DNA from: a virus
Reading direction: 5' to 3' (one strand)
DNA: 64,000 nucleotides
Virus record (IMG/VR): IMGVR_UViG_3300037484_000374
Span: 64,001-128,000 of that record
Made by a program: the position numbers and the translations under genes. The notes below the pieces were generated by a model. The model searched no databases. It saw only the letters and a program-made list of their open reading frames with translations, and was not told the origin of the DNA. Shown here piece by piece: positions 10,907-52,186 of this stretch. Numbering within the stretch: the first letter of the stretch is position 1; every line of letters begins with the position of its first letter.

Positions 10907-11353
10907 ATGACAAATAATTACTATATTAACAATTCAGAATTAGCCACAGAATTAGAATTTTTTAAAAAAACCTGTCAGTATAATAAGAAAGGTAAGTACG
11001 TAAAAGGAAAGATAAGTGAGGTTCTTGGTGAGATGATTTTAAGGATCGCCACCAACCTTGGGAATGATCGCTGTTTCGTAAACTATACATGGAAAAGTGA
11101 TATGGTTGCCGAGGCTGTTTTTACCTGCGTTAAATACCTACACAATTATGACAAAGAAAAAAGTGGGAACCCGTTTGGTTATATCACCATGATATGCAGA
11201 CATGCTTTCCTTAACTTTATCGCAAAACAGAAGAAACACGCAAAGATTAAAGATGTTTGTTTTAATTCTGTTGATGAGCTAATCGAGGAAGAAAATGAAT
11301 CCTATGCTCAGAGGTCAATAAATTATTCGATTTTGAAGATATCGAAAAAATAG
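10907..11353 (+). CDS. gp55: Late-transcription sigma factor gp55
   Basis: YYINN.EL...LGEMILRIATNL...FVNYTWKSDMVAEA...NPFGYITMICRHAFL..IAKQKK. Confidence 0.92.
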   Translation: MTNNYYINNSELATELEFFKKTCQYNKKGKYVKGKISEVLGEMILRIATNLGNDRCFVNYTWKSDMVAEAVFTCVKYLHNYDKEKSGNPFGYITMICRHAFLNFIAKQKKHAKIKDVCFNSVDELIEEENESYAQRSINYSILKISKK

Positions 11354-41272: not shown

Positions 41273-42319
41273 ATGAGTAAATGGGTAGACGAAGAAAAGT
41301 ATAATGATTTTGCAGGGAAAAAGGAACAGGAGAAAGAAAAACAAGAGTCGGGGGAAGGTCAGCAAGGGTTTGCTAAAAAATTCAGACCATCTATGGGTTC
41401 AGCAGAGAAACCAAAAGAATACGAAATTCGTTTTCTTCCTGATACAGATGGTAGATTTTATGAAGAATATTTCTATCATGGATTCTATGTTGGTGAGTCA
41501 TTCAAATTCATCGGTTGTGAAAAAAATAAGGGTCTTGACAAATATTGCCCGTGGTGTGGAATCACTCAGATTCTATATCAGGGATCGGCCAATGACAAAA
41601 AGAAAGCCGGTGATTACAAACGTAAAAATCGATATGTTGGTAACGTTTATGTTATTGATGATCCACGGGATGCAACTATCGAGAACCCAGAATACAAGAA
41701 TTCAAAATCAGTGCGGCTCTATGAATTCCCAGCAACAGTGGAAACAAAACTCAAAAAAGAAGTAACAGATAATAAAAATGGTTACGGGTTGGCAGTGTTT
41801 GATCCTGAAAATGGATACAGTATGTTGCTTTCAATTGGAGCCAAGAAAGCAGATGCTAATAAAAAAGTATGGCCAGATTATGACCAGACCATGTTTGCTC
41901 GTAGACAATCATCCATTGCCGATGGTGCTGAACTCGAAGAGATTATGGCTCAGCGTTATTCTTTAGGTGATTTTATTGAAGCCTTGATGATTACTCCCGA
42001 TGCCCATCGTGAACTTCTTAAATCAGAAATGGTTTATGAAGATGTCGAGAGAGACTTTGAGTTGAAGTTGGGCGGTTTTAATAAACTGACTACCAAAGAC
42101 GAACCAGCAAAGGAACCAGCAAAGGCTTTTGATCCAAATCAGAATGTACCACCAGTAGAAAGTAAACCAGACATGGGTGATGATACTCCTACATATGGAG
42201 CCCCACCACCAAAAACACCCTATCCGATCCAATATGGTGATGATATGGTTGTTGATAGCACAGGGTCATCGGCTCTTAGCGAGGATGATGCGCTGTTGGC
42301 CAGCTTGAGAGATTTATAA
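41273..42319 (+). CDS. gp32: Single-stranded DNA-binding protein gp32
   Basis: IRFLP, YHGF, C...CPWC zinc site, KRK.RYVGNVYVIDDP, FDPENG, acidic tail. Confidence 0.9.
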   Translation: MSKWVDEEKYNDFAGKKEQEKEKQESGEGQQGFAKKFRPSMGSAEKPKEYEIRFLPDTDGRFYEEYFYHGFYVGESFKFIGCEKNKGLDKYCPWCGITQILYQGSANDKKKAGDYKRKNRYVGNVYVIDDPRDATIENPEYKNSKSVRLYEFPATVETKLKKEVTDNKNGYGLAVFDPENGYSMLLSIGAKKADANKKVWPDYDQTMFARRQSSIADGAELEEIMAQRYSLGDFIEALMITPDAHRELLKSEMVYEDVERDFELKLGGFNKLTTKDEPAKEPAKAFDPNQNVPPVESKPDMGDDTPTYGAPPPKTPYPIQYGDDMVVDSTGSSALSEDDALLASLRDL

Positions 42320-42367
42320 TTTAAAATAGTAAATTGGTAAAATGTGAGGTGGTAAAATGTGAGGTGG

Positions 42368-42414
42368 TAAAAAAAAAGGGGGGGGGATACATAGAAATAT
42401 GTTTCCCCCTTTTA
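42368..42414 (+). terminator. Terminator after gp32; related hairpin at 46237-46280
   Basis: A-run/G-run-CATAGAAATATG-C/T-run hairpin found at both sites. Confidence 0.75.
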
Positions 42415-42847
42415 CATTGACAAACGATATAAAATATATAGGTGATTAAGTGAACAAGAAATCGTGTTTTGATTGTAAAAATGCTGTCGTGGTACAAGGA
42501 GATGCATCGGTTGGTATTGGTGGAATATGTATTGATAACTGCCACGCACAATTAACAGAAGACCAGATGGAAGCATGTGAAGACTGTGATTGGATAGAAT
42601 ATAAATGTCCAGCAAAATGTGGTCACTTTGAACATATTATGGTTGAAGTGTGTGCCGAGTGTAAAAAAGAAATGAATACCCCATTACATGAAGTAGAGTA
42701 TTATGGGGTTGAATATGTTGATATTCCGGTATGTTCGGTGGAATGTAAAATCAAGTTTGATGAGACAGTTGGAAAAAAAATTAAAGAATATTAAAATAAT
42801 TTAGAAAAAATTTGAAAACTTATATAAATACAAATAGAGAAACTATT

Positions 42848-42925
42848 ATGAAAAACACAAAAACGACCTCGACATCCAGTAAACCAAGTAACCCCAATCA
42901 TAGTGATTGGCCGGTGTACGTGTAG
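42848..42925 (+). CDS. Putative attenuator leader peptide 1 (MKNTKTTSTSSKPSNPNHSDWPVYV)
   Basis: Starts 18 nt after late promoter 42823-42830; its stop codon overlaps the antiterminator strand; codons match the cluster-1 tRNAs. Confidence 0.75.
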   Translation: MKNTKTTSTSSKPSNPNHSDWPVYV

Positions 42926-42988
42926 AATTCTCTAAAGTAATGTTGTAACCATAAAGGGGAGAATCTACAAAGGTTTTTCCCTTTTTTT
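42921..42988 (+). promoter_or_regulatory. Attenuator 1: antiterminator (42921-42933 pairs 42958-42969) versus 14-bp terminator (42953-42984 plus U-tract)
   Basis: Base-pairing read directly from the sequence; the terminator ends 13 nt before the first tRNA. Confidence 0.8.
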
Positions 42989-43001
42989 GTGGAAAAAATA
43001 T

Positions 43002-43077
43002 GGGGTGGTGGTTCAGTAGTAGAGCACAAGGTTGAAGTCCTTGGATAGCGGGGCGCGATTCTCCTCACCCCTGACCA
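43002..43077 (+). tRNA. tRNA-Phe(GAA), degenerate T-loop and acceptor
   Basis: CAAGG-TTGAAGT-CCTTG; T-loop CGCGATT; CCA end. Confidence 0.65.
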
Positions 43078-43091
43078 AAAATTGAATATAT

Positions 43092-43174
43092 AGATTGTAC
43101 CGCCATGGGGCAAACTGCTTTTGAACGGCATGGGTGGGTGAAACCACGGGGTTCGATTCCTCTACTTTCTGCCA
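43092..43174 (+). tRNA. tRNA-Ser(TGA), atypical 8/4-like fold
   Basis: TGCT-TTTGAAC-GGCA, long variable arm GTGG...CCAC, G73, CCA. Confidence 0.7.
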
Positions 43175-43181
43175 AGAATAT

Positions 43182-43268
43182 AGTAGATTGACCGAGCGGC
43201 AAGGTATCTGGTTGCTAACCAGCAGTAAGGGTGACACCTCACAGGTTCGAATCCTGTATCTACTGCCA
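43182..43268 (+). tRNA. tRNA-Ser(GCT)
   Basis: AGTAGAT/ATCTACT acceptor, CTGG-TTGCTAA-CCAG, long variable arm, G73 CCA. Confidence 0.92.
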
Positions 43269-43281
43269 GAAATAAATGTAT

Positions 43282-43355
43282 GGGGGTGTAACTTAGTGGC
43301 AAAGTAACTGGCTTTTAACCAGTAAACGGGGGTTCGATTCTCCTCACCCCCACCA
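43282..43355 (+). tRNA. tRNA-Lys(TTT)
   Basis: Canonical cloverleaf; ACTGG-CTTTTAA-CCAGT. Confidence 0.93.
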
Positions 43356-43658
43356 AAAATTGAATAGTAACACTAACTATACACGGTAATATTACCAATG
43401 TTACAATGCAAGGGGGGGGGGGTACCATGAATAAGTTTTTTAGAAAACAGTTGGAAAAGTTGAAATCAGGTCGAGGTAAAAGTCTGACTTATAATAATAA
43501 ACATGGAAAGTTTAGAGTAAAATATTGTGATGGTGTAAAATCCAAACCAATGTTTTATGATATCGCAAAAAGATTCGCTGGCATATTCAATGGGAAAGTA
43601 TTTTACATTGAAGATGAGGATGAATATCAGCGGTATGCGTTATAATTGAGAATGATAT

Positions 43659-43735
43659 ACTCCTATGGTGTTAATTGGTAAGCATGTGTGGCTGTTAACC
43701 ACAGGGCCAATGTTCGAGTCCTCGTAGGAGTGCCA
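43659..43735 (+). tRNA. tRNA-Asn(GTT)
   Basis: TGTGG-CTGTTAA-CCACA; ACTCCTA/TAGGAGT acceptor; mismatched T-stem. Confidence 0.85.
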
Positions 43736-43743
43736 AAATTAAT

Positions 43744-43817
43744 GTATCTCTGGTGAAATGGTATCATGATTGGCTCCAACCCAATCGTTGTGGGTTCAAG
43801 TCCTACGAGGTACGCCA
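43744..43817 (+). tRNA. tRNA-Trp(CCA)
   Basis: ATTGG-CTCCAAC-CCAAT; G73 CCA. Confidence 0.9.
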
Positions 43818-43829
43818 TTAAAAATATAC

Positions 43830-43903
43830 GCTAAGAGTGGTTCTGGGAACCGATTTCTCTTGTAAGGAAGTTTTTGGGGGTTCGACTCCTCCTCTTAGCT
43901 CCA
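43830..43903 (+). tRNA. tRNA-Thr(TGT)
   Basis: GCTAAGA/TCTTAGC acceptor; loop CTTGTAA; short D-loop. Confidence 0.82.
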
Positions 43904-43959
43904 AGTTTACACACAACAAGTATTGTGGTATAATGATAGTAAATATAATAGGAGATGTA

Positions 43960-44421
43960 ATGACAAGATTTTTCAAAAGCATTAAAAATTTAATCAGGTG
44001 GTTTCCAGTAATATGGAATGACAAAGATTGGGACAACGCTTATATCTATACGATATTACATAAGAAAATATCAAATATGGAAGATTTTTTCAGAACCGAT
44101 GCTATTATCAGTGAAGCAGACAGAGTTGCCGATGAGATCAACACCGTGGTTTTAGCTCTCCAAAGACTTGTCAAAGATGAGTATGAAGAAATAGCCTTTG
44201 AAGACCATGATAAGAAATGGGGTAAAATAGGAATGATAGAAGCACCATGGAAGATGCACAAGTTTAACTTCACCAGAAAAAATGTCACCACAGAAGAGGA
44301 TAAGAAAATAGAAAAGCAGGAAATGCTTGCTTGTTTTGATAGAGTAGAAGCATATAGACAGTGTGATATTGATCTTGTATGTGATACCATGAAAGAAAAA
44401 ATTCAGGAATGGTGGGATTGA
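43960..44421 (+). CDS. Conserved phage hypothetical protein
   Basis: IKNLIRWFPVIWNDKDWD...WWD; own sigma70-type promoter at about 43906-43934. Confidence 0.7.
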   Translation: MTRFFKSIKNLIRWFPVIWNDKDWDNAYIYTILHKKISNMEDFFRTDAIISEADRVADEINTVVLALQRLVKDEYEEIAFEDHDKKWGKIGMIEAPWKMHKFNFTRKNVTTEEDKKIEKQEMLACFDRVEAYRQCDIDLVCDTMKEKIQEWWD

Positions 44422-44429
44422 AATAATAA

Positions 44430-44505
44430 CTGGGTGTAGCTGAGTTTGGTTTAGCACGGGCCTTGGGAGTCCGAGACGGAGGTTCAAATCCTCTCATCCA
44501 GACCA
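44430..44505 (+). tRNA. tRNA-Pro(TGG)
   Basis: CGGGC-CTTGGGA-GTCCG; C1-G72, A73 CCA. Confidence 0.93.
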
Positions 44506-44997
44506 TAAATTAAAATTATGAAAAAAGATGAATCATTAATACCAGAAGGTGCTTATTGTTACACAATAATAAAAACACCTTGCAAAGAAACAAATTGGTG
44601 CTTGAGAATAAAACCATGTCCTTATTGGAAATTAATTTATGATTTTCCAGAACAAATGAATGGATATTGTAAGTTCTTAAAAGAAGGTGATTGGACTCCA
44701 AAAGGTCTATCATTGTTATGTGAATAACCTTTGCGAGGTACGATAATGAACTCCCTAAAAAAGTTAAAAATGAAAAAGGTCAAGAATGTCCTTTCCTCAA
44801 AAGAGGATGTGAATAAAGTGCGCACCTCGCTGGAGCAAAAAACCTCTCAAGCCTTTGATGCGTTTGCCAAGTCGAAGCAAAAAGACCAGGAAATGGCACA
44901 TTTGAAATATCTTGATTAAAACTAACCTATTCTTGCTTATAAGCCCGGACATCTGAAATTAAGATTCTGGCTTTTTTTAATGCCATATTGAATGATT

Positions 44998-45047
44998 GAG
45001 ACTCTGGCAAGTCACATAAGCGAGTTCGATTCTCGTCAACACCGCCA
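44998..45047 (+). pseudogene. 3' half of a tRNA (G73; possibly Asp)
   Basis: GCGAG-TTCGATT-CTCGT-CAACACC-G-CCA; the 5' acceptor strand and D-arm are missing. Confidence 0.6.
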
Positions 45048-45349
45048 AGTTAAAAAAATATATGAATGATCTTATCAGAATAATACAAGAAAATCTTACA
45101 CATAGTCTACTAAAACCTGAATATAGAAAAATCAACGAAAATAGCCCAACGTATGGTCATTGTTATGCTGCCTCGGAATTTTTATGTAATTTAGAAGGAA
45201 AAGATTAAAGTTTCTTCCCCTATCATGGTAGAGATGAAAATTAGGTTGACATACCATAAACACTATGGTATAGTAGGTTATATAAGAATTTTAAATGGTC
45301 ATAAAGACCAAAAGGGGTCATAAAGACCAAAACTGTAAGGAGAAGATGT

Positions 45350-46204
45350 ATGAAAAATTTGTTAAGTGTATTGGTAGCATTGGTTGCATTTCTTGCTGTC
45401 AGTACAATCCCACAGGTATCTAGGGCATCAGATGACGTTACGATAATGTTTGAGATCGGGATCGGTATTGGTAAATCTGGAAAGGTTGCCAAGAAAGTTG
45501 ACGCTGATCCACGACTCTGTAAGAATCGTGACACTGGTCGGTTGATTTATTTTGGTGTTCGTGCAACATATGATGATGTTGAACTTCACCTTGCGCGTTG
45601 GCAGGGTGACGCTGACTGTTTGACATGTGAGCGTGACGCCTGGGCCTTGGGCCTTGGATATCAAATAACCAGTGATGATCATGGAACAATGGATTATGAC
45701 GATGTGTATACCACATGGACTCATGGACTTGCCTATACATGGGGTGAGGAAAAAAGATACGGGGGTGAGGAAAAAGAAAATACTAACTGGCGTTTACATG
45801 GTAACTTCCAGATTTTTAACCGCCTTGCTGTTGGGGTTCAGACAGAAGATGCAATGCTTGAAGTTGCCTTGAATCGTTATGGTTCATTTGATCCTAACCA
45901 CGGTGAAACATTCTTAACCGCTGGTCTTGGTCTTAACTTTTTGGAAGACACAACACATGTACCAATAGCCACACCTGAAAAAGAAATCGTTTACATCGAA
46001 GGGTCAGCGGGTAAAGACGGAACCGATGGTGAAGATGGTGAAGATGGTGAAGATGGTGAAGATGGTGAAGATGGTGAAGATGGTGAAGATGGTGAAGATG
46101 GTGAAGATGGTGAAGATGGTAACAAGGGTAATAATGGAAACGGTAACGGCTCAGAAGGTGCTTCCCCAGGTCAGGGTAATGGGGCCAACGATGATGAAAA
46201 TTAA
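45350..46204 (+). CDS. Signal-peptide protein: PagL-like outer-membrane beta-barrel candidate with acidic collagen-like tail
   Basis: Sec signal; amphipathic strands (NFQIFNRLAVG, NHGETFLTAGLG); C-terminal (GED)n. Confidence 0.55.
   Translation: MKNLLSVLVALVAFLAVSTIPQVSRASDDVTIMFEIGIGIGKSGKVAKKVDADPRLCKNRDTGRLIYFGVRATYDDVELHLARWQGDADCLTCERDAWALGLGYQITSDDHGTMDYDDVYTTWTHGLAYTWGEEKRYGGEEKENTNWRLHGNFQIFNRLAVGVQTEDAMLEVALNRYGSFDPNHGETFLTAGLGLNFLEDTTHVPIATPEKEIVYIEGSAGKDGTDGEDGEDGEDGEDGEDGEDGEDGEDGEDGEDGNKGNNGNGNGSEGASPGQGNGANDDEN
46025..46120 (+). repeat. Perfect 9-nt tandem repeat (GATGGTGAA), about 10.7 copies, encoding Gly-Glu-Asp
   Basis: Read directly from the sequence. Confidence 0.97.
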
Positions 46205-46660
46205 TTTATAAAGTAAAATAGATACATAAGAAATCAAAAAAAAGGGGGGGGGGGCATAGAAATATGTTCCTCTTTTTTTGATTTAATCACTTGACTTTTT
46301 CTACAGATGTGATATAATACATTATAAGATAAATTCAGTTGAGGGATACACCATGTTACATAAGAAAACAATGTTATTAAGAACCAAAGATAATACTACC
46401 ACTGTTAGAATAGGACTTTTCGGTAATAACTTCAACCCCGATGCTTGGTATCTCTTGAATAAAAGAAATGAGCCAGATGTGATTGTTAATACATCACCAG
46501 CAGGGGCCAGCAAGATCGTTCTCTCATACAAGACATTGGAAGGAAAGAGAGTCTATGATATCTATAAAGTTACATCAATAATAGATATTTGAGAAAAAAT
46601 TAAAATAATTTGAGAAAAAATAGAAAACTTATATAAATAGTAATAGGAGAATTAAATTCA

Positions 46661-46744
46661 ATGACACTCAGACAGACATATACTCTTTTAGAACAACGCA
46701 TACTTGTGATAGGTATTGTTGTGTATTGTGGAGAAATACCGTAA
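46661..46744 (+). CDS. Putative attenuator leader peptide 2 (MTLRQTYTLLEQRILVIGIVVYCGEIP)
   Basis: Late promoter 46632-46639 and SD AGGAG; its stop codon overlaps the antiterminator strand; codons match the cluster-2 tRNAs. Confidence 0.78.
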   Translation: MTLRQTYTLLEQRILVIGIVVYCGEIP

Positions 46745-46808
46745 GACTGGGGGATAAAATAACGATCACAGAACCCCTTGGTCTTAAAAAAGATTAGGGG
46801 GTTTTTTT
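46742..46808 (+). promoter_or_regulatory. Attenuator 2: antiterminator (46742-46753 pairs 46775-46786) versus 14-bp terminator (46772-46803 plus U-tract)
   Basis: Base-pairing read directly from the sequence. Confidence 0.8.
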
Positions 46809-46814
46809 ATTTGA

Positions 46815-46842
46815 TTGACACAGCTTAAAAATATGGTATAAT
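46815..46842 (+). promoter_or_regulatory. Sigma70-type early promoter (similar ones at about 12318, 16162, 18352, 21863, 38514, 41168, 43906, 45246, 46291, 53820, 60316)
   Basis: TTGACA-N16-TATAAT with TG extension. Confidence 0.75.
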
Positions 46843-47046
46843 AAAATATAGGTAAAAGATTAAACTTTATTTAACAGGCGAGTAGGATGTCAGTAACAAT
46901 CATAGTAGTAACAGTTGTTGTAGAAATAGCATTAGTATTGTTGTTTAAAGAGAAAAACTAGGTCTTTGTTCTATGTTGAGGTGTGTGGCTTGTAATCACA
47001 ATATATTGGGGCAGAGTATCCATCATCTCAACCAAAGAAATAATGA

Positions 47047-47121
47047 AGGGGCATAACACAATGGTAGTGTACATGACTTTGAATCGTGATATGGTGGGTT
47101 CGATTCCCCCTGCCCCCGCCA
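47047..47121 (+). tRNA. tRNA-Gln(TTG)
   Basis: CATGA-CTTTGAA-TCGTG; G73 CCA. Confidence 0.9.
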
Positions 47122-47160
47122 AAAATAAATGTGTATTTTTATTATAAATACTAATAATAT

Positions 47161-47237
47161 GGGAGAGTGGTGGAACTGGTATACATACTTCGCTTAGACC
47201 GAAGGTTTTAGGGGTTCGACTCCCCTCTCTCATACCA
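47161..47237 (+). tRNA. tRNA-Leu(TAG) with short variable arm
   Basis: CTTCG-CTTAGAC-CGAAG; A73 CCA. Confidence 0.82.
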
Positions 47238-47261
47238 GATTAATCATCGTGGAGATTAACC

Positions 47262-47435
47262 ATGTGCATATTTAAATGTAGTTGTGGAAGCAGGAAAGTT
47301 AAGATAGAATCTTTTTGTAATTGTCATTATGTAATCTGTATTAATTGTAAAAATACTACAGAGAATTGTACGAGTCCAGAAATGGCAGTATTGAAATGGA
47401 ACCAAAAAATTGATAGTATAAGTCATAGTAAATAA
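47262..47435 (+). CDS. Small Lar-like zinc-finger protein (57 aa, absent from the ORF track)
   Basis: CSCGS...YVICINC...AVLKWN; RBS GGAG. Confidence 0.6.
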   Translation: MCIFKCSCGSRKVKIESFCNCHYVICINCKNTTENCTSPEMAVLKWNQKIDSISHSK

Positions 47436-47452
47436 CCAAAAGGGAGATAGAT

Positions 47453-47842
47453 ATGAAGAAATTGTTTTTAGTATTGATAATATGTTTGAGTTTGTTGTTA
47501 CCGGTAGTTGCATCAGCAAACATGGAGTGTTTGGGTGAACCGCTCACGGATGGCGAAACCAATATAGTTAATATGGTTCACGAACTTCTTACAGCATACG
47601 GTGCTTATATAATACCACTTGCAAACGCAGTTAAACCGGAAGAGGTTTTGGCAATGACTCGACCCGATCTTCAAAGATTGGCAACCCAATTAACAGAAGA
47701 GGGTCTTTTACAAGTGGTTTCAGGTCAGATTGGTTATTACGAAGAGGGTGATGTTTGGATGTTCGTGATTGTCGAACCAACACTGGATAAGGAAGCGGCA
47801 TGTATTATCAGTGTAATGTTAAGAGAGAAGACAGCAAAATGA
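47453..47842 (+). CDS. Secreted hypothetical protein
   Basis: Signal peptide MKKLFLVLIICLSLLLPVVASA. Confidence 0.7.
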   Translation: MKKLFLVLIICLSLLLPVVASANMECLGEPLTDGETNIVNMVHELLTAYGAYIIPLANAVKPEEVLAMTRPDLQRLATQLTEEGLLQVVSGQIGYYEEGDVWMFVIVEPTLDKEAACIISVMLREKTAK

Positions 47843-48234
47843 AAATTTTATTCAGAATATTGATTGTATTAATGTTTTTGTCAGTACCAATGAGCGCACA
47901 GGCAAAAAAAGAATGTACCAGTTGTGGAACGCTGGGTGTTACCGAGCAGATTACGGTAAATGATATTAACAAACAAGTCACTGAGTATTGTAGTGAAAAT
48001 ATGGGCAAGATGAAAACGTGGCCAGTACATAGGGCCATCAAAAAAGCCGAGAAGGGGATCAATTTGATCGTCACACGGTTTATCGACAAGGGGTACGTTG
48101 ATGGTATCACTGTCGAGTTTAAAGTCGTTAGCGATGAGCTATGGCCCGATAGTAAAAAAGTTTATGTAGAATTAACCATTGTTCCAAATAATAAGAAACC
48201 GTCAAGGTGTGTTATCACGGGAAGGTTACAATGA
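47839..48234 (+). CDS. Secreted hypothetical protein
   Basis: Signal peptide MKILFRILIVLMFLSVPMSAQA. Confidence 0.7.
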   Translation: MKILFRILIVLMFLSVPMSAQAKKECTSCGTLGVTEQITVNDINKQVTEYCSENMGKMKTWPVHRAIKKAEKGINLIVTRFIDKGYVDGITVEFKVVSDELWPDSKKVYVELTIVPNNKKPSRCVITGRLQ

Positions 48235-48605
48235 TGAGAATTGTATATATACTCTTAGCACTGATGGTTTTTATGTCACCATCGTTTGAAAAACTTAGCG
48301 CATATTCTGGGATGAGTCAACAAACCAAGAACCAAGGAAGCAATACGAATGTTGTGGAGGTAAAAAAAGAAATTCGAGCATGGTGTGAATATTATTCAGA
48401 AAAAATACCATCAAGGTTAACGTTAATATTATTACAAAGTTCACTGGATGGTTATTGTAACTTTGCAGTTCGTGAGAGGATGGTATATTGGGTTGATAGT
48501 GTGGCATTTATTAAGAATAATGAGATTTGGGTAAAGACCATTATCATCCCTGTAAAGGGTGGAGAAAAAATAGAGTTTACGTTAAGACTCGTAACGAAGT
48601 GTTAA
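48231..48605 (+). CDS. Secreted/membrane-anchored hypothetical protein
   Basis: Hydrophobic N-terminus; ATGA coupling to the upstream gene. Confidence 0.65.
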   Translation: MMRIVYILLALMVFMSPSFEKLSAYSGMSQQTKNQGSNTNVVEVKKEIRAWCEYYSEKIPSRLTLILLQSSLDGYCNFAVRERMVYWVDSVAFIKNNEIWVKTIIIPVKGGEKIEFTLRLVTKC

Positions 48606-48615
48606 TATAAAATAT

Positions 48616-48705
48616 GGAGAGTGCAAATAAGGCTGGATTGGTCTGGCGGTTGGCTGTAAACCAACCCCTGATAGACATGGGGTTCGAATCCTTCACTCCC
48701 CACCA
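48616..48705 (+). tRNA. tRNA-Tyr(GTA), atypical 8/4-like fold with expanded D region
   Basis: GTTGG-CTGTAAA-CCAAC, long variable region, A73 CCA. Confidence 0.8.
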
Positions 48706-48718
48706 AATAGGAACAAGT

Positions 48719-48880
48719 ATGGATATTGAAAAATGTGAATGTGGAAGTAAGAATGTTATACCAGAACTTTTTTGCGGTAGATCATATATCTATTGTAAGG
48801 ATTGTGAAAAAACCACCGGCGAACATATATTACTCGATGAGGCCATAGGTGAATGGAATAAAATGTCCAGAGTGTGGTGA
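48719..48880 (+). CDS. Small Lar-like zinc-finger protein
   Basis: CECGS...YIYCKDC...EAIGEWN. Confidence 0.6.
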   Translation: MDIEKCECGSKNVIPELFCGRSYIYCKDCEKTTGEHILLDEAIGEWNKMSRVW

Positions 48881-49427
48881 TGAAGCAGTACAGGCATTAG
48901 TCAATGGAAGACCGGCCATGGTTTGTGAGAGTTGTATCAATGGAGTTATGACACTTACACAATGCCAATATTGTAATGAATATAGATACAAGAGACAACA
49001 AAAAGTTTGTGGCTGTAGGGAAACGATGAACGAATAATACATGTACCATCCAGACAATAGGTTTCTGGCAATGAGCTTACGAAACTCGTTTGATAGTCTC
49101 AACTCCTATATGGTACCCCAATTTAAAAAAGGATTCACAATGCCTATAAATTTGGAAATTGAAGATTATGAAAGTGTTTTAATTTTAGCAGATGATGAAA
49201 ATGGGAATTTAGTCTGGGAAGTATTGATGCCCGAAATTGATGAAAATGTAGACAGTGAAGGGGTTTCAATACCAACATTAATGTGCGCCGCTGTTGCAAC
49301 CAGAATGAAAGAAGATAAGGGGTTTGTTGATGATATGATAAACTGGTTTGATTGTTTCGTTTGTACTGAACCACCACCAGTTAAAGGTAGAATGAAAACA
49401 AGTTTGAGGAGAGTAAAATAATTTTAT

Positions 49428-49502
49428 GCTCTGATAGTTTAACGGTAGAACGGACAACTTATAGTTGTTTAATGGCCGGTTCGACTCCACCTCAGAGCAC
49501 CA
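49428..49502 (+). tRNA. tRNA-Ile(TAT)
   Basis: GACAA-CTTATAG-TTGTT; GCTCTGA/TCAGAGC acceptor; A73 CCA. Confidence 0.85.
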
Positions 49503-49624
49503 TTAAGGTTTACGGTATGATAAAAATATGTTTGAAATGTGATCAAAAAAAGGATATATCTGAATTTCATAAAAATTGCCATGCTGAATATCATCATTTG
49601 AAAAGATGTAAAAATTGAAAATAA

Positions 49625-49704
49625 GCGGGTATGATAAGCCAAGGGCATTGGTAAACTGGACACCAGCCAGTAAATAAGGGGTTCGACTCCCCCTTCCCGC
49701 TCCA
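49625..49704 (+). tRNA. Atypical Gly-like tRNA (possible ACC anticodon); identical to 17266-17345
   Basis: Same sequence as the 17.3-kb copy. Confidence 0.6.
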
Positions 49705-49716
49705 AAAGTTTTATAT

Positions 49717-49793
49717 AGTTCCGTAGCTTAATTGGCCAAGCATCTCTTTTACACGGAGAAGTCATAAGAGTTCGAGTCTCTTCGGAACCACCA
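49717..49793 (+). tRNA. tRNA-Val(TAC)
   Basis: TCTCT-TTTACAC-GGAGA; A73 CCA. Confidence 0.9.
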
Positions 49794-49803
49794 ATATTAA
49801 TAT

Positions 49804-49880
49804 AGCGGTGTAGCTCAGTGGTAGAGCCGTGGTCCTGATAAGGCACAGACTTAAAGTTCGATTCTTTTTCACCGCTACCA
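49804..49880 (+). tRNA. tRNA-Ile(GAT)
   Basis: AGCGGTG/CACCGCT acceptor; loop CTGATAA. Confidence 0.85.
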
Positions 49881-50451
49881 TTAAATAAAGGATGTTAATA
49901 TGGATGAATTTGTTAAAGTATTTTGTAGGGTTGTAAAGATGCATTGGTACACTTGGAAAGCAAAATATATTCTGGATTCTATTTTGGATGTATGTCGATG
50001 GATAATTTATATTGGTTTCCTTCCAAAGACATTAATTAACTGGACTGTTGGTTGTCATTTGGCAAACTCCAAAAGATTAAGGAAGGTTATTATAGAATCT
50101 GATTTTACAGACATCATAAAATTTGTAGATCGGGCTGATAGAGCCTATAGAAACCTTTACATCGAAGATTAAAGGAACAAAATGAGTAAGCTAAAAATTG
50201 TTTTGAGGATAGTAAGATTGTACAGATGTACTTTTATAGGAAAGTATTACATACCGTTTTTAAATAAAATCATGGATTGTTTTGTGTTTCTTGGAATTAT
50301 CCACTACGGATTTCACAACCATATTGTTGATAAGATAAAGGAAAACACACAAAGAATAATTGAGATCGCCATAGAAGGTGGTAACCATGACCTTGCTGAT
50401 ATCGCTGATGATCAGAATAAAACAGCAGACGATTTATATATTTAAATGTGA

Positions 50452-50524
50452 CGCAAAGTAGACCGGTGTCTGGTGAAGTCTCATAAGCTCTCACGCTGGG
50501 GTTCAATTCCCCACTTTGCATCCA
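50452..50524 (+). tRNA. tRNA-Met(CAT), initiator-like C1:A72 mismatch
   Basis: Loop CTCATAA; T-arm TGGGG-TTCAATT-CCCCA; CCA. Confidence 0.75.
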
Positions 50525-50535
50525 AATAATTAAAT

Positions 50536-50609
50536 GGGGATATAGTTTAGTGGCAGAACAGCTGTCTTTCTAACAGCCAGCAGGGGTTCGATTCCCCTTA
50601 TCCCTACCA
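50536..50609 (+). tRNA. tRNA-Glu(TTC)
   Basis: GCTGT-CTTTCTA-ACAGC; canonical arms; CCA. Confidence 0.88.
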
Positions 50610-50680
50610 AAAAAATTTATTTTGTATTTTAAATATTTTTCCATAAAATCCATATAAATACCAATACAAGGAGAAATAAT

Positions 50681-51790
50681 ATGGATGCATATTGGATAAA
50701 CCCACAAGGAAAAATATTACAATTGACAGGGGGGACACATATAAAGATAGTTTTTGATAATCCAAATAAGTTTGGATTATCAAAACAATCAATTCAAAAA
50801 ATATATGATAAATATAACGAAAATTATGGAATAGAAGGAAAGGCGAGAGATGAAATTATCACAAAGATCATCCAACGAGGCTATGTTCGTATCAGAGAAT
50901 ACAAGAACAGGTGGAGCGTTCAGGTATGGAAGATCAATAATAAAGTAAATGATACATTATGGGTATGGGCAAAGACCGTATTACCCAAAGCAAGTGATAA
51001 ATTTGCTGATATAGACATCACAGAAATTGGTGGAAGGAAAGGTTTAATGAGAACATCTTTATCAAAATTGGCAAGTGGTGGAAGTATTTCAGAAGAAGAA
51101 AAAGAATTGGCAGAACGGCATGTTCGTTTTGTAGACTCGATTGATGATTTTGATGATTATGTTCCAGAGACAGAAGAAGAAATATCAGAAAAATATATAG
51201 TCAATGAATCATCATTGTCAAGGCTATGGAAACACAATACAGAACACGATTGTGGGGCTTTAACGGCATGGCGTAGAGCAGAGGGTTGTGGTGAGGGTAG
51301 ATTATATACACATAAGGAAAACCAACAACGTAATAAATCACTCAGAGCAAAATTAATGGCCATGGGCTATTCTGTAACTGTGATATCTGGAAAATACCCA
51401 GAGGGTGGTAAAACATCCAAGGAAGATAGTTATTTTGTCGTTGACATGGATGACGATGGACAGCTTGAAAAGGATTTACTGAAACTCGGAGAAATCTTTG
51501 AGCAGGATTCCATATTGTTTGTTCCAAAGGGTGCTGTTGAAAGAAAACAGAAAGCACTTTTAATAGGAACAAATCATTGTCCTAATGGATTCCCTGGGTA
51601 TGGTAAAAAACTTGAATTTGAAAAGGGCAAATTTGGTGTTAATAGCCCTATATATACATCATATGTTAATGGCCGACCATTTATATTTGAAACTCTTGAG
51701 ATGACAACACTCCACAGGCAAGGTAATGGTATGGGGGTCTGGGCAACATATCTCATAGCAAAAAAAGGTTGGCAAGACATAGACGTATAA
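50681..51790 (+). CDS. Late two-domain hypothetical protein
   Basis: Late promoter 50653; C-terminal domain ESSLSRLW...ENQQRNKSL...FEQDSILF; terminator at about 51807-51856. Confidence 0.75.
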   Translation: MDAYWINPQGKILQLTGGTHIKIVFDNPNKFGLSKQSIQKIYDKYNENYGIEGKARDEIITKIIQRGYVRIREYKNRWSVQVWKINNKVNDTLWVWAKTVLPKASDKFADIDITEIGGRKGLMRTSLSKLASGGSISEEEKELAERHVRFVDSIDDFDDYVPETEEEISEKYIVNESSLSRLWKHNTEHDCGALTAWRRAEGCGEGRLYTHKENQQRNKSLRAKLMAMGYSVTVISGKYPEGGKTSKEDSYFVVDMDDDGQLEKDLLKLGEIFEQDSILFVPKGAVERKQKALLIGTNHCPNGFPGYGKKLEFEKGKFGVNSPIYTSYVNGRPFIFETLEMTTLHRQGNGMGVWATYLIAKKGWQDIDV

Positions 51791-51904
51791 AAATAAGAAC
51801 ACTTTGAAAACCCCTCTTTTTCTTTGATATCAAGGAATTGGGGTTTTTCTTTTTTGTCGTTATTTTAAATTTTTTATATAAATACTATTAAGGGAGTAAC
51901 GAAA

Positions 51905-52186
51905 ATGGAGATTTATGAAAAATATCTTCTTGAAACCTTACCGGATGGCTGGACAAAAGACAGCGTTCAAAAGTTTGCCAAGACGATAGCGGCAAGCACT
52001 GACAAGGAAGGTTTCTTCAAGAAGTGAGTGGAGAGAATGTCACAGCATTTGGATGATGCTGAAATGGTTAACGGTCTTTGTGCCAGTATGCTTGATAAAG
52101 CTAAAGGCAGTACATATTGGAGAGGTTCACATAAGACAGCGGCGCAGGCAAAGAAGGATGTAGCGGCACACCAAAATGTAAAATGA
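51905..52186 (+). CDS. Late 93-aa protein with one in-frame TGA (codon 41, 52025-52027): selenoprotein candidate or pseudogene
   Basis: Late promoter 51877 and SD AGGGAG; the frame continues 52 codons past the TGA; hairpin at 52043-52061. Confidence 0.65.

Follow-up and report, generated by a model that had tools for sequence, protein, structure and literature searches.

Two tRNA gene clusters of an uncultured T4-like phage each stand behind a short open reading frame (ORF) and a transcription terminator, and the locus raises the question of whether these elements form switches that tie the synthesis of tRNAs to the codons those tRNAs read. The window analysed is a 64,000-nucleotide stretch of the 171-kb phage genome, which comes from sediment and soil and has a G+C content of 35%. 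Ahead of each cluster we found five parts, namely a TATAAATA promoter, a Shine-Dalgarno sequence, an ORF of 25 or 27 codons, an antiterminator strand holding the stop codon of the ORF, and an intrinsic terminator (Table 1). The architecture that the initial annotation had described for both clusters is indeed present in both modules. Across the 171-kb genome, only these two sites place TATAAATA ahead of a short ORF whose stop region pairs to a strong terminator. We consider it likely that both modules are ribosome-mediated (leader-peptide) transcription attenuators with a tRNA gene array as the regulated product, a reading for which there is no experimental or RNA evidence; no RNA run was listed as containing the stretch, which speaks neither for nor against it.

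Table 1. Positions in the window of the predicted parts of both modules, the tRNA clusters and the late sigma factor gene.
Feature	Position	Strand	Description
gp55 homologue (T4-type late sigma factor)	10913..11287	+	E 3e-17, 34% identity to KVP40 gp55
Promoter block 1	42786..42830	+	Ends in the T4-type late-promoter octamer TATAAATA at 42823-42830
Leader ORF 1	42848..42925	+	25 codons; weak purine-rich Shine-Dalgarno sequence 7-12 nt upstream
Antiterminator strand 1	42920..42934	+	Holds the TAG stop; pairs with 42957-42970 (terminator 5' arm and loop)
Intrinsic terminator 1	42953..42990	+	14-pair stem (42953-42984), 4-nt loop, T run
tRNA cluster 1	43002..44505	+	Phe-like (degenerate), Ser(TGA, weak call), Ser(GCT), Lys, Asn, Trp, Thr, Pro; small protein genes interspersed
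Promoter block 2	46595..46639	+	Near-identical to block 1; TATAAATA at 46632-46639
Leader ORF 2	46661..46744	+	27 codons; AGGAG Shine-Dalgarno sequence
Antiterminator strand 2	46741..46754	+	Holds the TAA stop; near-copy of the terminator 2 3' arm; pairs with its 5' arm
Intrinsic terminator 2	46770..46810	+	16-pair stem (46770-46805), 4-nt loop, T run
Consensus sigma-70 promoter	46815..46842	+	Directly 3' of terminator 2; TTGACA, 16 nt, TGnTATAAT; 12/12 matches, extended -10
tRNA cluster 2	47047..50609	+	Gln, Leu, Ile(TAT), Val, Ile(GAT), Met (weak call), Glu; protein genes interspersed

The two promoter blocks are similar over approximately 45 nt, including an identical 17-mer that has TATAAATA at its end and occurs nowhere else in the window. 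The similarity ends at the promoter, and the ORFs and terminators of the two modules are non-homologous. We read TATAAATA as a late promoter because the genome encodes a gp55 homologue. The octamer is enriched (19 occurrences versus 11 expected) and lies 15-35 nt ahead of many ORF starts with a Shine-Dalgarno sequence. By its octamer and the gp55 homologue, TATAAATA meets the definition of a T4-type late promoter, of which activity and timing are predicted only. A sigma-70-like -35 element lies approximately 17 nt upstream of TATAAATA in block 1, and the -35-like TTGAGA lies 16 nt upstream of it in block 2.

At the 3' side of each leader, two alternative pairings are predicted. Antiterminator 1 pairs with an energy of -14.1 kcal/mol (shuffle P 0.002) and represents the most stable fold of the transcript as long as the 3' arm of the terminator has not been made. 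Antiterminator 2 pairs at -17.6 kcal/mol (shuffle P 0.0015). A 14-bp terminator with a U-tract had been claimed for both clusters; the length holds for terminator 1 and not for terminator 2, whose stem is longer, and both have the T run. In the folds of both modules, the antiterminator strand also pairs over a long range with the 5' end, a pairing which is not conserved across instances of the module in related phages. In leader-peptide attenuators, a 1:2 protector or pause hairpin keeps ribosome and polymerase in step and allows termination in the absence of translation. We found no conserved hairpin of this kind across these instances, so an untranslated leader would presumably read through.

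These parts suggest a mechanism in which leader translation, stalling, read-through and the physiological trigger are all inferred. Transcription would start at the TATAAATA promoter, which is of the T4 late type and perhaps is read by sigma-70 too, and the short leader would be translated while it is being transcribed. By default, the strand with the stop codon would pair with the 5' arm and loop of the terminator, no terminator would form, and the polymerase would enter the tRNA genes. When decoding is fast, the ribosome would be on the stop codon as the terminator is transcribed; it would cover the antiterminator strand, allowing the hairpin to form and transcription to stop. A ribosome stalled more than about five codons upstream of the stop would leave the antiterminator free, and the tRNA array would be transcribed. 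With each leader built from codons read by the tRNAs behind it, the circuit would amount to a negative feedback that fits the supply of those tRNAs to the decoding demand.

The tRNA content behind each terminator was determined by ARAGORN, which called 12 tRNAs with default settings and, when relaxed, added Ser(TGA) at 43083 and Met at 50452. Rfam added the degenerate Phe(GAA)-like gene at 43002-43072. The tRNA set originally listed for cluster 1 is thereby recovered, including its degenerate Phe gene, with one Ser gene as a weak call only. For cluster 2, the listed Tyr and 'Gly-like' genes were found by neither ARAGORN nor Rfam. In cluster 1, the first tRNA-like gene begins approximately 12 nt past the T run and 18 nt past the stem. 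Since this distance is only 10-18 nt in module 1 and in a related instance, L117, there is no room for a promoter between terminator and tRNA in either.

The leaders of this one genome have nearly disjoint compositions. In leader 1, 19 of the 24 codons after Met specify Lys, Asn, Thr, Ser, Pro or Trp, and Leu, Gln, Glu, Ile and Gly are absent, exactly as first counted. The count for leader 2 was likewise exact, with 19 of 26 codons for Leu, Gln, Tyr, Glu, Ile, Val or Gly and none for Lys, Asn, Ser or Trp. Restricted to the confirmed tRNAs, leader 2 has Gln, Leu, Ile, Val or Glu at 15 of 26 codons, a weaker match unless the tRNAs that no tool confirmed are counted. Crossing the two leaders with the two tRNA sets yields P below 5e-6 when protein windows serve as the null, and P 1.3e-4 when random small ORFs do.

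The same architecture occurs 11 times in at least nine related metagenomic phages, whose gp32 proteins are only 37-56% identical. In every one of the 11 instances, an intrinsic terminator (folding energy -14 to -22 kcal/mol, with a T run) follows the stop codon after a gap of 26-34 nt. Ten of the 11 place the stop codon within the antiterminator stem, and a purine-rich Shine-Dalgarno sequence is seen in all nine aligned instances, with a weak site in leader 1. The terminator sequences are unrelated between instances, and each stop-codon strand is complementary to its own terminator. In the 11 x 11 energy matrix, the true assignment of antiterminators to terminators beats all 200,000 random permutations (P below 5e-6). 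Individually, the pairings are significant in 9 of 11 instances; those of L001 and L121 are weak and do not outperform shuffled sequences. For a transcript lacking the 3' arm, the antiterminator is the most stable fold in 9 of 10 instances. The parts, their conservation and the co-variation of the alternative pairings are directly visible in the sequences. Five of the leaders are homologous, which leaves about six independent cases. A relative with a long contig, G001, has no such element, and the detector gave one hit per 684 kb in unrelated viral contigs.

We compared leader composition with the downstream tRNA set across these phages. For leaders ahead of partial arrays, the amino-acid match to the own set is 0.79 in module 1 (P 4e-4), 0.74 in L001 (P 0.004) and 0.74 in L011 (P 0.001), that is, 74-79% versus a background of approximately 36-41%. 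Module 2, the exception, reaches 0.58 (P 0.013) against a background of 34%. Three independent families combine to P 3e-6, and in the 4 x 4 leader-by-set matrix, each row and each column peaks on the diagonal. At the codon level, the match persists under strict wobble rules (P 2.5e-5 to 0.047). Leader content follows the downstream anticodons when non-homologous leaders are compared, and it does so inside one homologous family as well, where the counts of Ile, Lys and Asp track the presence of the matching tRNA.

The codon match depends on position. It amounts to 84% upstream of the last six codons and 33% within them (Fisher P 3e-7; P 2e-4 on three independent leaders only). A ribosome footprint extends approximately 12 nt 3' of the A site. 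The matching codons end about five to six codons before the stop, which is the boundary expected from such a footprint; a ribosome stalled nearer to the stop would mask the antiterminator in any case. The held-out leader L164, found once the hypotheses were fixed, has 18 matching codons out of 23 (P 6e-4): 16 among the first 17 and two among the last six. Both the match and its position dependence are observed features of the leaders. In codon content, position and pairing, the modules meet what defines a leader-peptide attenuator, as far as sequence can tell.

Ahead of near-complete arrays, leaders of 35, 38, 33 and 28 codons use 20, 19, 18 and 18 different amino acids, respectively (P 0.0009-0.04; combined P 2.5e-5), and the variety of codons in them is also unusually high. 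Not every tRNA of these arrays is represented in its leader: Leu is missing from the L026 leader, and Cys and Val from those of L117 and L118, with the cognate tRNAs present. Between the homologous L117 and L118 leaders, amino-acid diversity is kept and the peptide sequence is not.

The consensus sigma-70 promoter behind terminator 2 was overlooked in the initial annotation. It would transcribe cluster 2 independently of the attenuator, probably early in infection. Similar promoters lie 3' of the terminators in L025, L026 and L121, and L011 has one approximately 1.2 kb beyond the terminator, behind two protein genes. Part of the tRNA expression therefore bypasses the switch, and the promoter 3' of terminator 2 leaves the attenuator as the sole route of tRNA expression unsupported. 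The switch also has cargo other than tRNAs, since in L011, L025 and L145 the terminator is followed by protein genes before the first tRNA is reached.

These promoters also bear on a simpler explanation, namely that the leaders are ordinary small late genes with their own promoter and terminator, the terminators insulate self-promoted tRNA arrays, and the codon match arose by chance or merely reflects peptide composition. T4-like phages commonly have small ORFs, and as set 1 consists of polar and set 2 mainly of hydrophobic amino acids, peptide type alone would produce some match. However, this explanation does not tell why the strand with the stop codon can, at a constant gap, always pair with a terminator whose sequence is otherwise unrelated, why the match holds in non-homologous leaders and against a small-ORF null yet is lost in the last six codons, or why leaders ahead of full arrays hold 18-20 kinds of amino acid. 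Nor does it fit the L117/L118 pair, which conserves diversity rather than peptide, or module 1 and L117, which have no space for a further promoter ahead of the first tRNA. We regard it as very unlikely. It is hardly credible that the ORF is incidental and that RNA alone forms the switch, as a T-box-like element or other riboswitch recognising uncharged tRNA or a small ligand. T-boxes are known tRNA-sensing attenuators and also use a terminator/antiterminator pair, but no sequence is common to the 11 leader RNAs, which, at approximately 60-120 nt before the switch, are too short for a T-box; what is conserved is the ORF, the Shine-Dalgarno sequence and the position of the stop codon. The Rfam T-box family, whose hallmarks are a specifier loop, stem I and a conserved T-box sequence within the bulge of the antiterminator, was rejected, as it and all riboswitch families had no match in 42000-52000 at E up to 1.

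If the modules are true translation-coupled attenuators, they might still report general translation capacity (ribosomes, starvation, inhibitors) rather than particular downstream tRNAs. Any stall would trigger the switch, a ribosome cannot distinguish a missing from an uncharged tRNA, and leaders with nearly all amino acids would answer almost any starvation. A general sensor, however, needs none of the matching we observe: partial-array leaders are restricted to the amino acids of the array and, at the codon level, to its anticodons, the Ile, Lys and Asp counts follow the matching tRNA, and the two leaders of one genome hardly overlap. This makes the general sensor unlikely. The initial annotation emphasised evasion of defence, in which host anticodon nucleases cleave tRNAs, the leader senses the loss, and the phage replacements are switched on. 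PrrC, RloC, PARIS AriB, Retron-Eco7 PtuAB and colicin-type tRNases deplete specific tRNAs, and phage tRNAs are able to compensate for depleted ones. The switch would respond to such a loss, and Lys, whose tRNA is a classic PrrC target, is present in both cluster 1 and leader 1. Yet no sequence feature points to nucleases, the host is unknown, and leaders with up to 20 amino acids go far beyond the known nuclease targets; a codon-usage mismatch between this AT-rich phage and its host would select the same feedback. Nothing here supports nucleases as the trigger, and we hold this explanation to be doubtful.

The preferred reading, leader-peptide attenuation, places the modules beside the trpL, hisL, leuL and pheL attenuators of enterobacteria. 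Both have an intrinsic terminator and an antiterminator that excludes it, behind a short leader that is translated, in the phage by inference; in both, the position of the ribosome on the leader would select the hairpin, and the regulatory codons correspond to the substrate of the product. In contrast, the product of the phage module is a tRNA array rather than a biosynthetic enzyme, the leader codons sample 6 to 20 amino acids instead of a single-amino-acid run, the stop codon itself lies within the antiterminator strand without a detectable conserved 1:2 protector hairpin, and the module is phage-encoded with a predicted T4-type late promoter. Multivalent attenuators (thr for Thr and Ile; ilvGMEDA and ilvBN for Ile, Val and Leu) also sense several amino acids via mixed regulatory codons, but only two to three related ones of a single pathway, whereas the phage leaders reach 20, set by the downstream anticodons. 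The pheST attenuator (pheM) and the T-boxes of aminoacyl-tRNA synthetase genes likewise adjust a translation component to the state of its cognate tRNA. However, neither regulates tRNA genes: pheM responds to a single amino acid and acts on a synthetase, and T-boxes bind tRNA directly, with no ribosome involved. T4 and KVP40 resemble this phage in the TATAAATA promoter with a gp55 homologue, and in tRNA genes clustered amid small ORFs of a T4-like genome. In neither the KVP40 tRNA array nor the region ahead of the tRNA cluster of T4 did the same detector find a short ORF with a terminator switch. We found no publication on leader-peptide attenuation controlling tRNA genes, in line with the initial statement that no description is known of a multi-amino-acid attenuator whose output is the cognate tRNA array.

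Our findings support the attenuator interpretation by comparison with relatives, not by experiment: the architecture recurs in distant relatives, and the antiterminator strands co-vary with terminators that are otherwise unrelated. The phage probably makes its clustered tRNAs only when ribosomes decode the matching leader codons slowly. If this is true, the two leaders would control two different subsets of tRNAs independently.

Each tRNA cluster of the window is preceded by a module composed of a promoter block, a Shine-Dalgarno site, a leader ORF, an antiterminator strand containing the stop codon, and an intrinsic terminator. Terminators 1 and 2 dominate the predicted folds. The initial annotation had proposed that an antiterminator strand overlaps the leader stop codon in both modules, and this was borne out: the stop codon lies inside both antiterminators, and both pairings are better than shuffled and natural-sequence controls (P 0.002-0.003). 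The amino-acid compositions of the two leaders are exactly as that annotation gave them, and leader 1 has only a weak Shine-Dalgarno site. For the clusters, ARAGORN called 12 tRNAs, relaxed ARAGORN added Ser(TGA) and Met, and Rfam added a degenerate Phe-like gene. The Tyr and 'Gly-like' genes previously assigned to cluster 2 could not be confirmed by ARAGORN (default or relaxed) or by Rfam (E up to 10).

We notice that a degenerate tRNA-like sequence heads each cluster. The first is Phe(GAA)-like with a defective T arm, and the second is called by no tool, its acceptor-like pairing being seen by eye. Cluster 1 also contains a G run just upstream of the start of a small ORF ending at 43645. The run differs by one G between contigs of two metagenome runs (X1 and X2), and therefore may be a variable homopolymer.

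Positions of the features discussed. Plain coordinates refer to the window, and L-numbers denote loci in related metagenomic phages.
Feature	Position	Remark
gp55 late sigma factor homologue	10913-11287	
AT-rich promoter blocks	42786-42830; 46595-46639	about 45 nt in common
Leader 1	42848-42925	
Antiterminator 1	42920-42934	pairs with 42957-42970; -14.1 kcal/mol vs -14.6 for terminator
Terminator 1	42953-42984	one of the two top terminator-like sites in a 10-kb scan
Degenerate tRNA-like, cluster 1	43002-43072	35 bits
G run, cluster 1	43404-43416	about 12 G
Leader 2	46661-46744	
Antiterminator 2	46741-46754	pairs with 5' arm of terminator 2; -17.6
Terminator 2	46770-46805	the other top site in the same scan
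Sigma-70 promoter	46815-46842	perfect consensus
24-codon ORF	46887-46961	
Degenerate tRNA-like, cluster 2	46965-47040	
Relatives with the architecture		L001, L011 (near-twin L136), L025, L026 (and L116), L117, L118, L121, L145, L164
gp32-end hairpins with late-promoter motif	L122:11005-11046; L165:11018-11053; L007:10987-11034; L017:11432-11479; L018:11611-11646; L022:10992-11033	
GOLLD RNA	L026:10322-10751	Rfam RF02032, 177 bits
tmRNA genes	L025:18356-18713; L145:11248-11608	
107-residue ORF	L164:15571-15894	RF-1 domain
Unexplained stretch	L004:12460-12680	175 nt

The window comes from a single contig of 170,951 bp with 35% G+C, and large ORFs in it resemble T4-type baseplate hub and wedge proteins, gp46 and gp32. 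The nearest gp32 in a collection of 5.8 billion proteins is 56% identical. An INPHARED protein search with gp32 revealed no cultured relative, since the nearest cultured phages, cyanophages, show 25-30% identity and nothing exceeded that. Near and distant DNA searches of 42400-47300 against INPHARED returned tRNA-level matches only, and a single-protein scan of IMG/VR with gp32 gave no match. The promoter-block DNA pattern was also searched in IMG/VR and set aside, as all of its 87 loci were chance matches except one relative already known. Near-identical DNA is contained in sediment and soil metagenomes. The source is a T4-like phage, distant and uncultured. Contigs of four DNA runs represent near-identical strains with zero substitutions in either leader, a variation too small for selection on the leaders to be assessed. 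In contigs of three metagenome runs, 46268 is joined back to 42700, a hint that some strains are rearranged between the two promoter-block regions, which resemble each other.

Relatives were sampled as contigs around gp32 homologues, plus tRNA arrays for some. The architecture described for the window recurs at nine of their loci, giving 11 instances when the two modules are included; the gp32 proteins of these relatives are 37-56% identical to that of the window phage. In every instance, 26-34 nt separate the stop codon from the first paired base of the terminator. The terminator stems are unrelated in sequence among instances, and the stop-codon strand is complementary to the 5' arm of its own terminator. 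When duplex energies were tabulated for all 11 x 11 combinations, the true assignment was better than all 200,000 random permutations, and an 8 x 8 exact test gave P 5e-5. With the terminator loop included, 9 of the 11 pairings are individually significant, only those of L001 and L121 being weak, and the stop codon falls within the antiterminator stem in 10/11. Within the 171-kb genome, only the two modules combine TATAAATA with a short ORF behind it and pairing of the ORF's stop region to a strong terminator. A promoter-free detector yields 1 match per 684 kb in unrelated viral contigs, and it found no element upstream of or inside the tRNA array of KVP40. The element is likewise absent upstream of and inside the T4 tRNA cluster, which has no terminator within 700 nt upstream. 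In phiCbK, the third tRNA block has ahead of it a promoter, an ORF of 32 codons and a strong terminator. We do not lean on this case, in which 13/31 codons match, counting a Tyr(GTA)-like tRNA read by eye without any tool call (12/31 with ARAGORN tRNAs alone); the terminator finder is ill-suited to high G+C.

When transcripts were folded to the end of the 5' arm, with the 3' arm absent, the antiterminator was the minimum-energy structure in 9 of 10. The antiterminator is thus favoured before the 3' arm exists, and the default state would therefore be read-through. In these folding models, a ribosome on the stop codon region is the one event able to switch the default to termination. The modules would then act as leader-peptide attenuators, in which transcription of the tRNAs depends on the speed of the ribosome over the codons those tRNAs serve. 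Such a switch would let tRNA supply limit itself by negative feedback, and the window phage would have two independent channels of this kind.

The codon content of the leaders was compared with the downstream arrays, partial and near-complete arrays being treated separately. In front of partial arrays, the share of leader residues for which the array has a tRNA is 0.79 in module 1, 0.58 in module 2, 0.74 in L001 and 0.74 in L011 (P 4e-4, 0.013, 0.004 and 0.001), against a background of 0.34-0.41. In the 4 x 4 matrix of leaders by tRNA sets, the diagonal is the maximum of all rows and columns. For the two leaders and two sets of the window phage, the cross statistic gave P < 5e-6 (against protein windows) and 1.3e-4 (against random small ORFs). 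At the codon level, strict wobble rules gave P 5e-5, 0.047, 0.007, 8e-4 and 2.5e-5. L164, a locus found after the hypotheses were fixed, matches in 18/23 codons (P 6e-4), and its leader includes all seven isotypes of its own array. The leaders of module 1, L121, L145, L011 and L164 form one homologous family, within which the counts of Ile, Lys and Asp track whether the matching tRNA is present. Counting independent families only, the combined P is 3e-6, so that the match between leader content and downstream tRNA set, as the initial annotation had claimed, is better than random.

The match also depends on position in the leader. Upstream of the last six codons it reaches 84% (76/90), whereas within them it is 33% (10/30; Fisher P 3e-7), which is the background level. 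The effect is significant at all cut-offs of 3-8 codons, with P 2e-4 on three independent leaders alone. The ribosome footprint extends about 12 nt 3' of the A site, and therefore a ribosome stalled no more than four to five codons before the stop would still cover the antiterminator strand, which starts at about -3 to +4. The last 4-5 leader codons are thus unable to act as sensors. The six-codon cut-off was picked after seeing the data; nevertheless, this boundary agrees with ribosome geometry. Pro is found among the last four residues in 7 of the 11 leaders, so a 'hold' signal near the leader end is only suggestive and not universal.

Leaders of near-complete arrays (21-28 tRNAs) differ from those of partial arrays, as the attenuator model predicts. 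With lengths of 35, 38, 33 and 28 codons, they encode 20, 19, 18 and 18 different amino acids (P 0.0009, 0.024, 0.040 and 0.008; combined, 2.5e-5), and their distinct codons are unusually numerous. The correspondence between leader and tRNAs is not one to one in these arrays. The leaders of L117 and L118 are homologous, and their peptide sequence has diverged almost fully while the amino-acid diversity is kept, which argues for a constraint on composition and not for a functional peptide.

The two promoter blocks are similar, as the initial annotation had noted, and contain an identical 17-mer ending in TATAAATA that is absent elsewhere in the window. The likeness ends at the promoter, the ORFs and terminators behind the blocks being not homologous. 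TATAAATA, the T4 late-promoter consensus, is enriched in the window (19 observed vs 11 expected), and genome-wide it often lies 15-35 nt ahead of a Shine-Dalgarno site and ATG. Several instances carry a sigma-70-like -35 element properly spaced upstream of TATAAATA, and therefore this promoter may also be read early. In many relatives, we also observed a hairpin terminator just past gp32 that bears a late-promoter motif in or beside its loop, exact TATAAATA in some and the variants TATAAATAC or GTATAAATA in others; terminator and late promoter are thus superimposed.

On the other hand, several observations weigh against a simple picture. A sigma-70 promoter directly after terminator 2 had been overlooked, similar promoters follow the terminators of L025, L026 and L121, and L011 has one about 1.2 kb past its terminator, behind two protein genes. 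Early on, these promoters probably allow tRNA expression independent of the switch. In module 1 and L117, by contrast, the first tRNA lies 10-18 nt past the terminator, and read-through is the sole route from the adjacent promoter to the tRNAs. The picture is also weakened by protein genes between the switch and the first tRNA (L011, L025 and L145), by the weak Shine-Dalgarno site of leader 1, by the lack of a conserved protector (1:2) hairpin among the instances, by the imperfect correspondence of leader and tRNAs in full arrays, and by G001, a relative with a long contig (L004, L028; gp32 54%) that has no leader/terminator switch near its tRNAs. The tRNA region of G001 contains a short ORF 175 nt ahead of a strong 17-pair hairpin, and the intervening stretch, at the position of the attenuator in other relatives, is unexplained by any tool.

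Other elements were observed around the arrays. The 24-codon ORF directly behind the sigma-70 promoter of module 2, just before the first tRNA-like sequence, encodes at 15/23 codons an amino acid that cluster 2 serves (Val, Ile, Leu or Glu), with no terminator after it; possibly it is a very small hydrophobic protein, or else a second element coupled to translation. A GOLLD RNA lies within the array of L026. The arrays of L025 and L145 end in tmRNA genes, so that a ribosome-rescue RNA adjoins putative attenuator-gated arrays. Within the array of L164, an ORF encodes a peptide chain release factor / peptidyl-tRNA hydrolase domain.

The proposed switch works in the manner of the trp, his, leu and pheA attenuators, and likewise of the multivalent leaders of thr and ilv. 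Classical leaders sense one amino acid (2-3 in thr and ilv) and control enzymes. Except for the conserved 1:2 hairpin, the modules meet the sequence-level defining features of these attenuators. They differ in that their output is tRNA genes, their sensor spans 6 to 20 amino acids set by the downstream anticodons, their stop codon sits inside the antiterminator, and their context is that of a phage late promoter. They are not a T-box, as judged by the absence of any Rfam T-box or riboswitch match in 42000-52000 at E up to 1. In the full-text literature, with subscription journals largely outside, we met no account of phage or bacterial tRNA genes being controlled by leader-peptide attenuation. 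The regulatory principle is known; the kind of target is new.

On sequence evidence, the feature is real and conserved, with good statistical support. The attenuator mechanism put forward in the initial annotation is, with good though incomplete confidence, its best explanation, and no experiment stands behind the mechanism. The natural trigger cannot be told from sequence, as codon-usage mismatch, decay of host tRNAs and anticodon nucleases are indistinguishable. We lean, with less assurance, towards an undescribed class of regulator, in which codon-matched leader-peptide attenuators make phage tRNA arrays demand-driven and self-limiting, the leader being a 'translation speed test' for the exact anticodons it gates. 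This class may have arisen repeatedly in unrelated tRNA-rich phages, and it might sense host tRNA-cleaving defences.

Phage tRNA genes are usually debated by purpose, namely to compensate for codon usage, to replace degraded host tRNAs or to evade anticodon nucleases; to our knowledge, the control of their expression is almost unknown. In metagenomic phages, the leaders provide a signature by which functional tRNA sub-arrays can be annotated from sequence. If the mechanism holds, they would offer synthetic biology a compact and programmable way to sense tRNA availability, and attenuation would extend to multi-codon sensors controlling RNA genes of the translation apparatus. The phage would gauge decoding speed codon by codon and adjust its tRNA supply by feedback. 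One could then test directly which tRNAs limit an infection, since the answer of the phage itself can be read from the leader.
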